From: Bacteroidota bacterium
Lineage (GTDB): Bacteria; Bacteroidota; Bacteroidia; UKL13-3
DNA length: 64,000 nt
NCBI GenBank assembly: GCA_947456185.1
Contig: CANGPW010000002.1
Location: 2,019-66,018, forward strand
Reading direction: 5' to 3'
A program made the position numbers and the translations under genes. The notes under the pieces were generated by a model that worked only from the letters and a program-made list of their open reading frames with translations, was not told the DNA's origin and did not search any database. The stretch's first letter is position 1. Each line of letters opens with the position of its first letter. Shown here in pieces: positions 1,801-5,458 of this stretch.

Positions 1801-2109
1801 CTAGCCATTGCAAGCATCCTCGCTAGCAATATATGGTTAGAGACGTTGCATTGCAAGGTCTTTTTTTTGTTTAAAAGTTAGTTTCCTACCCTCATTTCGA
1901 CAAGCTCAATGACCGTTGTAATTTCAGTCATTTCGAGCGTAGTCGAGAAATAACAAACAAGTTCTCGACTAAGCTCGAACTGACATACCTAGCAGGTTTG
2001 GATTTGCAATCCAAATCATTTAGTTGAACTGAGATTGATGAAAACACACAACCTCGGGCAAAGATCCACCCCGTCAGTTAGCCAACTGACAACCCTCAAG
2101 AGAGGAATT
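1801..2109 (+). repeat. multi-hairpin module, copy A (extended form: terminator + core 1886-2109)
   Basis: Near-identical by eye to 3079-3374 and, from 1886 on, to 5236-5458. Contains hairpins H0 (1927-1984) to H5. Confidence 0.9.
1842..1868 (+). terminator. intrinsic terminator after the DegT gene (part of module copy A)
   Basis: gacgttg-cattg-caaggtc hairpin followed by T8. Confidence 0.6.
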
Positions 2110-2385
2110 ACATACTTCATCATTCATAAATCTCATATCACACTTCTCATCTCTCAATTCAAAATTTATACTTCATCAATTATAATTAGATTGCTTTCCC
2201 GCTTAGGCTGGACAGGCAGTGCCTCGCAATGACGGGTAAATTTAAATCTTTTTTCATACTTCATCATTCATACTTTCCCAATTTGTTGGGACTTTATACT
2301 TCATAATTTTCAATTCATCATTCCCAAAATTTTAGTCCATTATCGTTTATTTAGGTATTTTTATTTTATAGAAGTTTAACTACAT

Positions 2386-3021
2386 TTGTATGTGGGAACC
2401 AATTTAAAATATGAATTACACAATGTCATTTCAGGAAAGAGCCAAGTTAGGCATGGAGGAATTATCCAAACAATTGCCAATTACCTTAACCAAGGCGCGA
2501 GAACAAGCCCAAAAACTGAATATAGCAAGCAATACAAAGCTGAAGAAACAGAGAGGTTAAAGCTATTTATTGAAGGAAATAATCTCTGGGTTGAGATAGA
2601 TTTAAATCAATATGTGAGTGAAGGTGCCGAGCAAAAAGTTTATTTGAAAGACACCGCATCTGTTTATAAGCTGAATGATTCAATATACTATGCCAGTTGG
2701 CATGATTATTTCATTAACTTATTACTACATAATTTTTTTTTCTCGGATACTGCCTATCAATTAATTGGATTTGCAAAAGTGGAAGATGTTTTATTTGCAG
2801 TAGTGGAACAAGCCTTTGTGATCAATACTGAATCAACAGATTTAAATCGGGTAAGGCGCTTTCTGTCAGAAAATGGTTTTCAAAATATAAAGAACAACGA
2901 CTACTACAATCCTAGTTTAGGTATTATTATTGAAGATTTACATGATGAAAACGTATTGACTAAAAACAATATTTTATACTTTATTGATACTGTATTTTAT
3001 ATCACAGAGAATTTTCATTAA
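2386..3021 (+). CDS. hypothetical protein with protein-kinase-like motifs (small atypical kinase fold?)
   Basis: 211-codon ORF with a non-ATG start (TTG 2386 or GTG 2392). Gly-rich SEGAEQKVY followed by VYK, D184-LHDE-N189 (D-x4-N) and D201 in FIDT, spaced like the catalytic loop and metal-binding Asp of protein kinases. Own terminator at 3033-3055. Confidence 0.55.
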   Translation: MYVGTNLKYELHNVISGKSQVRHGGIIQTIANYLNQGARTSPKTEYSKQYKAEETERLKLFIEGNNLWVEIDLNQYVSEGAEQKVYLKDTASVYKLNDSIYYASWHDYFINLLLHNFFFSDTAYQLIGFAKVEDVLFAVVEQAFVINTESTDLNRVRRFLSENGFQNIKNNDYYNPSLGIIIEDLHDENVLTKNNILYFIDTVFYITENFH

Positions 3022-3032
3022 TTAGTTTTTTG

Positions 3033-3055
3033 TCCCAACTCGTTTGGGATTTTTT
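3033..3055 (+). terminator. intrinsic terminator after the kinase-like ORF
   Basis: tcccaa-ctcgt-ttggga hairpin followed by tttttt. Confidence 0.65.
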
Positions 3056-3078
3056 GTATAAAGTAGTGTAGTGATTTT

Positions 3079-3374
3079 CTAGCCATTGCAGGCGTCCTCG
3101 CCAGTAATATTTATAGAGACGTTGGCATTGCAACGTTTTTTTGTTTAAAATTTAGTTTACTACCCTCATTTCGACAAGCTCAATGACAGTTGTAATTTCA
3201 TTCATTTCGAGCGTAGTCGAGAAATAACAAACAAGTTCTCGACTAAGCTCGAACTGACGGTTTGGATTTGCAATCCAAATCATTTATTTGAACTTGAGGT
3301 TGATGAAAACACACAACCTCGGGGAAAGTTCCACCCCGTCAGTTAGCCAACTGACAACCCTCAAGAGAGGAATT
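3079..3374 (+). repeat. multi-hairpin module, copy B (extended form; core 3160-3374)
   Basis: Direct repeat of copy A. Lacks the 10-nt atacctagca segment between H0 and H1. Confidence 0.9.
3119..3142 (+). terminator. second terminator-like hairpin (part of module copy B)
   Basis: acgttg-gcattg-caacgt followed by T7. Confidence 0.55.
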
Positions 3375-3513
3375 ACATACTCCAAAATTTATCATTCATA
3401 CTTCACCTACTTTGAATTTTTGTTACTCCGCATTTCGCACTTTCCTCAAAATTCATCATTCATAATTCATAATTTAGCCCTACATTCGCCCCTTTTAAAA
3501 AAGTAAATAATAA

Positions 3514-5145
3514 ATGATTTCAGTTGGTAATTTAAGCTTACGATACGGTAAGCGCGTGTTATTTGAAGATGTAAATGTTAAGTTTGCTCCAGGTAATTGT
3601 TATGGTGTAATTGGTGCAAATGGTGCTGGAAAATCTACTTTATTAAAAATTCTTTCGGGCGAAATAGAACCAAGCACAGGCTCAGTTTCTATTACTCCTG
3701 GCGATAGAATGAGTGTATTAAGTCAAAATCACTTTGAATTTGATGAGTTTCCAGTTTTGCAAACTGTTATCATGGGTAACAAAAGATTATGGCAAATCAT
3801 GGAGGAAAAAGATGCCATTTATGCCAAACCTGATTTTAGCGATGCCGATGGATTAAAAGCTGCTGATTTAGAAGGCCAGTTTGCCGATATGGAAGGTTGG
3901 AATGCAGAAAGTGATGCGGCAAGTTTACTTAATGATTTAGGAATTGCTGACGCATTGCATGGCAAATTAATTAAAGATTTGAACGGAAAAGAAAAAGTAC
4001 GTGTGCTTTTAGCGCAAGCTCTTTTTGGCAATCCTGATATATTATTATTAGATGAGCCTACCAACGATTTGGATGTGGAAACAGTAACTTGGTTAGAAAA
4101 CTTTTTAGCTGATTTTCAAAATACGGTAATTGTGGTAAGCCATGACAGGCATTTTTTAGATGCTGTTTGTACGCATGTGGCCGATATTGATTTTTCAAAA
4201 GTTTCACTTTACACTGGAAATTATTCTTTCTGGTATCAAAGTAGCCAATTGGCATTGCGCCAAAAAGGCGATCAGAATAAAAAAGTAGAGGAAAAACGCA
4301 AGGAATTACAAGATTTTATTGAACGTTTTAGTGCCAATGCTTCTAAAAGTCGTCAGGCTACAAGCAGGAAAAAACTATTGGAAAAATTAGTAGTGGACGA
4401 TATTCAAGCTTCTACTCGTAAATATCCTGGTATTATTTTTAGACCTGACAGAGATTGTGGCGACCAAATTCTTCGAATAGAAAACTTAAGTAAGAAAAAC
4501 AATGATGGTGAAGTGTTGTTCAAAAACATTTCCTTTAATTTAGACAAAGGTGATAAAGTAGTAATTCTTTCAAAAAACCCAATGGCTATTTCCACCTTTT
4601 TTGAAGTAATTATGGGAAATGACAAGGCCGAAACTGGCGAATTTGTTTGGGGACAAACCATTACCAAATCATATTTACCAAACGACAACAGCAGTTATTT
4701 TAGTGCTGACTATAATTTAATAGATTGGTTACGCCAATATTCTGAAGAAAAAGATGAAACTTATGTACGTGGCTTTTTGGGTAAAATGCTATTCAGTGGC
4801 GAGGAAGTTTTCAAAAAATCAAATGTATTAAGTGGAGGCGAAAAAGTACGTTGCATGGTTTCACGCATGATGTTAACCAATGCCAATTGCTTAGTGCTTG
4901 ATGAACCTACAAATCACCTGGATTTGGAATCAATTACCGCATTTAACAATGCTTTGATGGATTGGAAACACAATGCTATTTTTACAAGCCATGACCATGA
5001 ATTTGTTCAAACCATTGCCAATAGAATTATAGAAATTACGCCAACTGGCTGCATAGATAAACGCATGACTTACGATGAATACATTAATAGCGCAGACATT
5101 AAAGAACAACGCGAAATGATGTATTTACAAAAAGGTAAAAAATAA
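3514..5145 (+). CDS. ABC-F family ATPase (YbiT-like, soluble, two NBDs)
   Basis: 543 aa, no TM segments. NBD1 has Walker [10 protein letters not shown] and Walker [15 protein letters not shown]2 has signature LSGGEKVR and Walker [12 protein letters not shown] but a degenerate P-loop. N-terminus aligns by eye with E. coli YbiT. Confidence 0.9.
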
Positions 5146-5168
5146 TTTTTTAAATCATCAATATAAAA

Positions 5169-5197
5169 GCCAAATGTGAAAACGTTTGGCTTTTTTT
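5169..5197 (+). terminator. intrinsic terminator after the ABC-F gene
   Basis: gccaaa-tgtgaaaacg-tttggc followed by T7. Confidence 0.75.
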
Positions 5198-5235
5198 GTT
5201 TTATAACCATTCATCTGATATTAGCTATTGGCACA

Positions 5236-5458
5236 CTACCTCATTTCACAAGCTCAATGACCGTTGTAATTTCAGTCATTTCGAGCGTAGTCGAGAAATA
5301 ACAAACAAGTTCTCGACTACACTCGAACTGACATACCTGGCCGGTTTGGATTTGCAATCCAAATCATTTATTTGAACTTGAGGTTGGTGAAAACACACAA
5401 CCTCGGGGAAAGTTTTACCCCGTCAGTTAGCCAACTGACACCCCTCAAGAGGGGAATT
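5236..5458 (+). repeat. multi-hairpin module, copy C (core only)
   Basis: Same order of hairpins H0-H5 as copies A and B, with single-base differences. Confidence 0.9.

Follow-up and report, generated by a model that had tools for sequence, protein, structure and literature searches.

In a 64,000-nt stretch of DNA from an uncultured lake Bacteroidota lineage (contig CANGPW010000002.1, positions 2,019 to 66,018; hereafter the window), three co-oriented copies of a hairpin-rich intergenic module of about 220 nt, here called A, B and C, lie within 3.6 kb. Our analysis indicates that these modules are probably a repeat mosaic, akin to repetitive extragenic palindromic (REP) sequences and bacterial interspersed mosaic elements (BIMEs), that recombination or gene conversion copied locally. 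The hairpins of the module are members of repeat families found alone or recombined, both within the window and among other freshwater Bacteroidota genomes, and each module combines several independent families instead of being one element. The complete composite is strain-specific, recent and local. An earlier note on this DNA, made from the sequence alone, had proposed as candidates a mobile or REPIN-like element, a structured RNA and a terminator-promoter cassette; REPINs are paired, inverted REP units that fold into a long hairpin.

Three copies of one composite module

Direct-repeat detection, MAFFT alignment and an nhmmer profile recovered the three copies on the + strand where the earlier note had placed them (Table 1), and the other 60 kb of the window contained none. 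Pairwise identities are 97.2% for A and B, 93.3% for A and C, and 94.9% for B and C. Diagnostic 22-23-mers of the module gave three matches each against 0.00 expected in dinucleotide shuffles, and the alignment bore out that a 10-nt spacer between hairpins H0 and H1 is present in A and C and missing from B. The copies contain the hairpins H0 to H5, with minimum free energies of -71 to -78 kcal/mol and a z score of about -6.9 relative to shuffles. This fold is the one that the note had described, with two corrections: in copy A one change breaks the stem of H2 (GAGATTG) and another that of H3 (GGGC), and the pairing register of H5 in A and B differs from that in C. The note had also held that variation falls mainly in loops. 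Indeed, 24 of the 30 variable columns are unpaired, but 10 of these 24 belong to a single indel and five of the six changes at paired positions break the pair, with none being compensatory; the excess in unpaired columns is real and rests on about 20 events.

Each copy is preceded by a terminator, as had been noted, and lies in the interval that separates the terminator of one gene from the promoter region of the next. The distance to the downstream gene had been put at 200-350 nt; measured to the start codon it is 277 nt (A), 140 nt (B) and 198 nt (C). The neighboring genes (DegT, ABC-F, NdpA and RuvB) are housekeeping genes that are syntenic in relatives, and the three genes directly downstream of the modules are functionally unrelated to one another. 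Copies A and B share an upstream extension of ~85 nt that is about 85% identical between them. Within it are two hairpins, CTAGC...GCTAG and a terminator-like one that runs into a stretch of T (AGAGACGTTGCA.TGCAA.GTCTTTTTTTT), the latter flagged in B at 3115-3140; the DegT gene of a related contig (L042) has the orthologous terminator (3655-3685). With this extension, A and B form ~310-nt direct repeats on either side of a small kinase-like gene. In the B block the DegT-type terminator copy stands downstream of the kinase gene's own terminator, an indication that B arose as a copy of an A-like ~310-nt block.

The module is a mosaic of independent repeat families

In BLAST coverage maps the module fell apart into blocks that differ in the sequences they match. 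Partial nhmmer matches likewise covered either profile positions 37-140, corresponding to H0 and H1, in metagenome-assembled genomes (MAGs) L020, L043 and L018, or positions 176-227, corresponding to H4 and H5, in metagenome contigs L082 and L075. The H0+H1 block recurs in the three MAGs at another, mutually syntenic locus, where its spacers vary in length and, in L018, H0 is truncated. The H4+H5 block is found as one piece without H0-H3, after a terminator hairpin in L082 and directly after a gene in L075; among 17 matches from a metagenome scan with H4, these two alone are related, and for H4+H5 only. The sequence 3' of the module is likewise composed of other recurrent mini-repeats.

The first two components of the module, a reverse-oriented unit that we call pre and the doublet H0, derive from one hairpin unit family of the form 5'-GTC(A)-stem-GAGC(N2-3)GTCGA-stem', with a stem of 4-5 bp and a conserved loop of 11-12 nt. 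The motif GAGC(N2-3)GTCGA, which is carried by pre and by both arms of H0, has 15 matches in the window against 0.12 expected, all of them intergenic, and every stand-alone unit lies no more than ~100 nt downstream of a stop codon. While the loop is conserved, the stems differ between units (AGTTC/GAACT, ATTTC/GAAAT, ACCCT/AGGGT, CGTT/AACG, CATT/AATG and ATCCT/AGGAT). We compared the stems of instances extracted from the window and related loci. In 25 distinct units with four to five stem pairs, 86% of the stem cells are paired compared to 53% in shuffles, and the covariation score is 0.90, compared to 0.26 in shuffles and 0.09-0.21 when the partners are slid against each other. The unit stems thus covary around a conserved loop. 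H4 probably belongs to the same family, as it shares its outer seven bases and central AGCC with H0-type doublets of L020 and L018, and it may be a centrally deleted doublet of this type.

H1 has a different ancestry. A ~60-nt repeat, CGCT-GGTTTGGATTTGCAATCCAAAYC-N8-13-GGATTTGCAATCC-GC-TTTT, is common in MAGs of lake Bacteroidota, and H1 is a truncated copy of it; the copies in the window are fragments because the 5' CGCT and the second hairpin are absent. The H1 core matched 66 stretches in a species-representative genome collection, mostly from lake Bacteroidota MAGs and several with multiple copies, and none of these matches was surrounded by the composite. H1 was found in at least 40 intergenic places of such MAGs, inside the ~60-nt element and often several times per locus. 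The outer pair of H1 is G-C, A-T, T-A or G.T across MAGs, and two copies in L053 carry the double change TTCGG/CCGAA, showing that the palindrome is maintained. The loop of H2 resembles that of a small family, (G)GTTG-GTSARRASACA-CAAC(C), with relatives at window position 12571 and at position 309 of L075. No relatives of H3 were found; just its 3' arm accompanies H4+H5 elsewhere, and for this reason its pairing is probably fortuitous.

Table 1 Positions of the module copies, their components and stand-alone members of the unit family in the window
Feature	Positions	Strand	Basis
Module copy A: pre, H0, 10-nt spacer, H1, H2, H3, H4, H5	1886-2112	+	nhmmer score 276, alignments
Module copy B, without the 10-nt H0-H1 spacer	3160-3377	+	nhmmer and alignment; also in L093 at 99.8% identity
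Module copy C (profile and alignment); edges (pre, H5) orthologous to L085, interior ~5259-5438 absent there	5237-5458	+	
Upstream extension of A and B only	A 1797-1885, B 3075-3159	+	alignment
pre, single reverse-oriented unit of the GTC(A)/GAGC(N2-3)GTCGA family	A 1893-1913, B 3167-3187, C 5241-5261	-	
H0, inverted doublet of the same unit, GTCA/TGAC feet outside, REPIN-like	A 1927-1984, B 3201-3258, C 5275-5332		
H1, truncated copy of the ~60-nt repeat	A 1995-2017, B 3259-3281, C 5343-5365	+	
H2, hairpin	A 2031-2055, B 3296-3320, C 5380-5404	+	
H3, GGGG-N9-CCCC	A 2056-2072, B 3321-3337, C 5405-5421	+	
H4+H5 block, GTCAGTT-AGCC-AACTGAC then CCTC/GAGG	A 2073-2105, B 3338-3370, C 5422-5454	+	
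Stand-alone doublet of the unit, feet inside	10471-10522		
Stand-alone single unit GTCATCCT-GAGCTTGTCGA-AGGATG, between convergent genes	27259-27290	-	
Stand-alone H0-type doublet, between convergent genes	45138-45206		
Stand-alone doublet of the unit, feet inside	60382-60428		
Degenerate H0-type doublet	63063-63120		

Strain comparison and alternative explanations

With nhmmer, the full composite profile was recovered from the window (three times) and from L093 only, and 720 kb of related sequence held no further copy. L093 is a 1988-nt contig of the same strain, 99.8% identical, that holds copy B. A look-up of the ABC-F protein gave just one other short contig (L067, 1954 nt), which encodes an identical protein; its ends fall inside modules B and C, where repeats would be expected to break an assembly. 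The most informative relative is the MAG contig L085, in which the ABC-F and NdpA genes are 92-94% identical to those of the window. Upstream of ABC-F it has no module; a PIN toxin-antitoxin pair occupies the place of the kinase-like gene and module B, and homology to the window resumes within about 10-30 nt of the 3' end of B. At the C locus, L085 is 96.7% identical across pre and 98.7% identical across H5, and an unrelated segment of ~60 nt stands between them in place of window ~5259-5438. Both edges of C are therefore kept, and L085 does not provide an empty site. In L042, the DegT protein of which is 82% identical, the DegT terminator is conserved; the mosaic after it is a different one, in which an H1 is present. 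In more distant relatives (L086-L090) only 27 nt separate NdpA from the preceding gene.

Two strain-level synteny breakpoints were observed at these loci. One lies at window ~2392-2405 and L093 880-893, where an M78-peptidase gene stands upstream of the kinase-like gene instead of DegT and module A; the other lies at window ~3378-3408 and L085 ~2254-2280, where the toxin-antitoxin pair of L085 stands upstream of ABC-F in place of the kinase-like gene with module B. We considered and rejected a mobile kinase cassette. The kinase-like protein (PF18762) is encoded by a widespread, conserved, stand-alone Bacteroidota gene in varied contexts, and we found nothing to indicate that it moves together with the module. 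Exact look-ups of the kinase and DegT proteins returned no record.

These comparisons suggest a route by which the modules may have arisen. One composite would have been assembled step by step as hairpin units were inserted, deleted or collapsed. Homologous recombination or gene conversion would then have copied it into two neighboring intergenic regions, with resident repeats (pre, H4/H5 and the terminator hairpins) supplying the homology. Copying would have yielded the ~310-nt direct repeats A and B around the kinase-like gene and, at C, would have overwritten the middle of a related mosaic that was there before. Spread of the individual units probably took place in the form of single-stranded DNA hairpins, through a host or domesticated enzyme of HUH/Y1 type, as with REPs (PMC3116915, PMC6006769).

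The main competing explanation is that the whole 220-310-nt composite is a non-autonomous mobile element, similar to a MITE (a miniature transposable element with inverted repeats) or a palindrome-associated transposable element, with three independent insertions. The near-identity and common orientation of the copies would fit such an element, as would the absence of B from L085 with homology resuming so close to its 3' end. The segment replaced at C is, in addition, bounded by hairpin feet (...AATGAC and ...ACTGAC) that would fit cleavage of the IS200/IS605 type. However, terminal inverted repeats are lacking, as the 5' end CTACCCTCATTTCG (in the long A/B form TCTAGCCATTGC) is not complementary to the 3' end ...GAGAGGAATTACAT, and flanks of A, B and C contain no matching target-site duplications. 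The module ends of A and B differ from those of C, the copies are clustered in 3.6 kb rather than dispersed, the related sequence supplies no further copy, and the retention of both C edges in L085 shows that C is not a simple insertion. No predicted open reading frame (ORF) products from other copies were found: translations of the module had no match among 5.8 billion predicted proteins or in exact look-ups. Nor did blastn against plasmids and phages give a match, and scans of viral contigs with H1 and H4 gave none. The remark that no transposase, reverse transcriptase, Cas or integrase gene lies nearby held for the 28 window ORFs that were scanned against Pfam. We therefore consider mobility of the composite as a unit unlikely. 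A classical MITE was rejected for want of both inverted repeats and duplications. Among the readings of the earlier note, the MITE/REPIN-like one comes closest, since the doublets are REPIN-like; what it missed is that several families make up the module.

It was further proposed that the module is a structured RNA transcribed from the + strand, either one of a set of paralogous small RNAs or a shared 5' leader, which we regard as quite improbable. The strong fold, the orientation of every copy with its downstream gene and the somewhat higher variation in unpaired columns are consistent with an RNA, and the G.T wobble in H1 favors the + strand. Yet the fold of the minus strand is no less stable (-85.6 versus -77.9 kcal/mol for the plus strand), one H0 mismatch becomes a G.U pair on the minus strand only, and H1 in other MAGs is a perfect palindrome (GG...CC) or has A-T or T-A pairs, so the G-T pairs do not carry the inference of a + sense single strand that was drawn from them. 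The composite is not kept in L085 despite the 92-94% identity of the flanking genes, its parts occur elsewhere in shuffled combinations with a mild orientation bias relative to the upstream ORF (29 H1 copies in the same and 17 in the opposite orientation), and changes at paired positions are disruptive and never compensatory. The modules also sit behind strong terminators, 140-277 nt ahead of start codons, and the genes they precede have no function in common. That the module is no recognized RNA family was borne out by a scan of Rfam 15, in which neither the region nor the whole window had anything at the gathering threshold and matches in E-value mode were at chance level. Taken from the sequence, a dedicated RNA or regulatory function of the module appears unlikely.

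Very unlikely, in our assessment, is the reading of the module as a portable cassette of terminator and promoter, with a Bacteroidota -33/-7 promoter supplied by H1 and its flank. The layout TTTG-N18-TTTATTTG on which this idea was built is present in B and C, and H1 with its T-rich tail was flagged as terminator-like. By contrast, TTTATTTG misses the A of the TAnnTTTG consensus, copy A has TTTAGTTG instead, and the motif does not follow H1 in other genomes. The strict Bacteroidota sigma-A pattern (TTTG at -33, a spacer of 17-21 nt and TAnnTTTG at -7) had no match in the module and 11 in the window compared to 7.3 expected, which is not an enrichment, and a scan for the sigma-70 consensus did not rise above chance. 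A better -7 box, TACATTTG (2382-2389), coincides with the start annotated for the kinase ORF, a long way downstream of module A.

Several points weigh against a REP/BIME-like mosaic that was copied locally. The unit has a conserved loop, a variable stem and a GTC(A) tag, as opposed to the conserved stem and GT[AG]G of canonical REPs. H2 and H3 have few or no relatives, and part of the module could still be specific. The number of composite copies in this genome comes from 64 kb of it. Mobilization of the units, finally, is a step that we infer, because the scanned window ORFs include no RAYT (REP-associated tyrosine transposase) or Y1 gene and none was found flanked by GAGC(N2-3)GTCGA hairpins. 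A tblastn search with a Y1 protein against all fetched loci hit only L095, where the flanking REPs are different. This locus (L095 7950-8930; GCA_030680835.1, JAUXUD010000060.1), from a MAG related to the window organism, encodes a 149-aa Y1_Tnp protein (PF01797, E 1.8e-25) flanked on both sides by GC-rich palindromes, TAGGGGCAACGCCCCTA and AGGCCTTCAGCCTGAAGG, and looks like a REPtron in a Bacteroidota MAG.

If the modules are a locally copied mosaic, their effect is probably generic and would consist in extra termination or insulation between co-directional genes and in homology for rearrangement, which would make them recombination hot spots. The module is thus not one to be chased as a new RNA gene or regulator. 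The unit family, with its conserved loop and covarying stems, might be the one aspect that repays further work; a separate description of the family would be warranted if a protein partner were found. A bolder and doubtful possibility is that the GTC(A)/GAGC(N2-3)GTCGA hairpins, the H0 doublets and the collapsed H4 make up an undescribed REP/REPIN-type system of freshwater Bacteroidota in which a protein reads the conserved loop. RAYT subclasses 2.6 and 3 are reported to have atypical, tag-less structures, with 2.6 occurring mostly in Bacteroidetes (PMC6006769); the protein could possibly be an atypical Y1/HUH enzyme of this subclass. Were this so, segments bounded by hairpins would be cut and joined as single strands, which would account for module boundaries at TGAC feet, and the mosaics would be active drivers of the strain-level rearrangements seen here.

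Other repeats and comparison with known systems

The window contains further repeats. Tandem heptamers (TTCATAA/TTTATAC/TTCATAC) stand directly upstream of many start codons, oriented with the downstream gene, at 34-82, 447-509, 2105-2185, 2250-2325, 3440-3480, 5570-5632, 39060-39122 and, on the minus strand, 62960-63010. They recur in related MAG contigs (L085 5580-5750 and L013 920-990) and are candidates for a promoter/UP-like element, a leader or another repeat family. Relative to its L042 ortholog, the DegT aminotransferase gene (511-1770) has in-frame insertions of 16 and 18 aa at 1002-1093 and 1436-1534, at least the first of which matches heptamer-repeat material at the DNA level; such insertions recall the in-frame Rickettsia palindromic elements and intragenic REPs. 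Between convergent genes, window 12557-12702 consists of two tandem copies of a 73-nt unit (92% identical; no Rfam match), each unit comprising an H2-like hairpin, GTTGTTG-GTCAGGAGACA-CAACAAC, and a CCCAAC...GGGAT hairpin. A small hairpin family, (T)CCC(A/G)A-N4-6-T(T/C)GGGA, often followed by a T-run, is found at 2276-2291, 3032-3050 (the apparent terminator of the kinase-like gene), 5498-5515, 12609-12626 and 16647-16690. Two mini-modules also recur: GATTGCTTTCCCGC...CGCAATGACGG at window 2188-2246 and L075 214-266, and GGATTCGGCAAGCTCACCAWGACA at window 5534-5562, L075 386-414, L042 1475-1503 and 1681-1709, and L082 1121-1149. A long 15/18-nt tandem repeat, GCTGCTTTCTTAGGA..., covers 14529-14867, where ORFs 14505-14879 (+) and 14537-14869 (-) overlap; its minus-strand translation would be a histone-H1/AlgP-like low-complexity protein with KKAAP-like repeats. 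Intergenic 8/9-nt tandem repeats (TCTTTCTAA/TCTTTCAA) at 59574-59645 and 60462-60559 flank the GrpE gene (-).

This uncultured lineage is rich in small hairpin repeats that are built into mosaics differing between close strains; breaks in assembly and in synteny coincide with these repeats. For the assembly and annotation of MAGs this means contigs that end inside repeats and, possibly, spurious ORFs. The modules also offer a tractable case of REP-like repeat dynamics outside Proteobacteria.

The module sequence families matched nothing in Rfam and no relevant paper in the searchable literature. An integron attC or cassette array was rejected, the neighboring genes being housekeeping and syntenic and no integrase being present among the scanned ORFs. 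Like MITEs such as the Correia elements of Neisseria, the module is small, non-coding, intergenic and present or absent at strain level, but it differs from them in lacking inverted repeats and duplications and in the inconsistent ends of its copies. The BOX elements of Streptococcus pneumoniae are dispersed modular repeats (boxA-boxB-boxC) with more than 100 copies and a fixed module grammar. The module is likewise a composite intergenic repeat of about 100-300 nt with distinct sub-modules and a stable secondary structure; unlike BOX, the full composite is clustered here in three copies in one strain.

The closest parallels are with REPs, BIMEs and REPINs (PMC3733652, PMC6006769, PMC3116915). 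H0 and the doublets at 10471, 45138, 60382 and 63063 resemble REPINs in that inverted units with a short spacer fold into a long hairpin, and ~15 units occur in 64 kb; in contrast to REPINs, which RAYT transposases mobilize, no cognate RAYT was identified among the loci, the Y1 of L095 being flanked by different, GC-rich REPs. The foot of the unit is GTC(A)/GGTC and not the unpaired 5' GT[AG]G of canonical REPs. BIMEs are intergenic clusters of palindromic units, usually 3' of genes, that vary between loci and strains (PMC3733652, PMC6006769). The module departs from these in its unrelated unit sequence and tag, in conserving the loop of the unit rather than its stems, and in also holding fragments of unrelated repeat families (H1 and H2). 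Despite these differences, it is built, like the BIMEs of Escherichia coli and relatives, from palindromic units of alternating orientation together with other short motifs, and its make-up varies by locus: the order is pre(-), H0(+,-), H1, H2, H3, H4, H5, and the sub-blocks recombine differently in L020/L043/L018, in L082/L075, in L042 and in L085.

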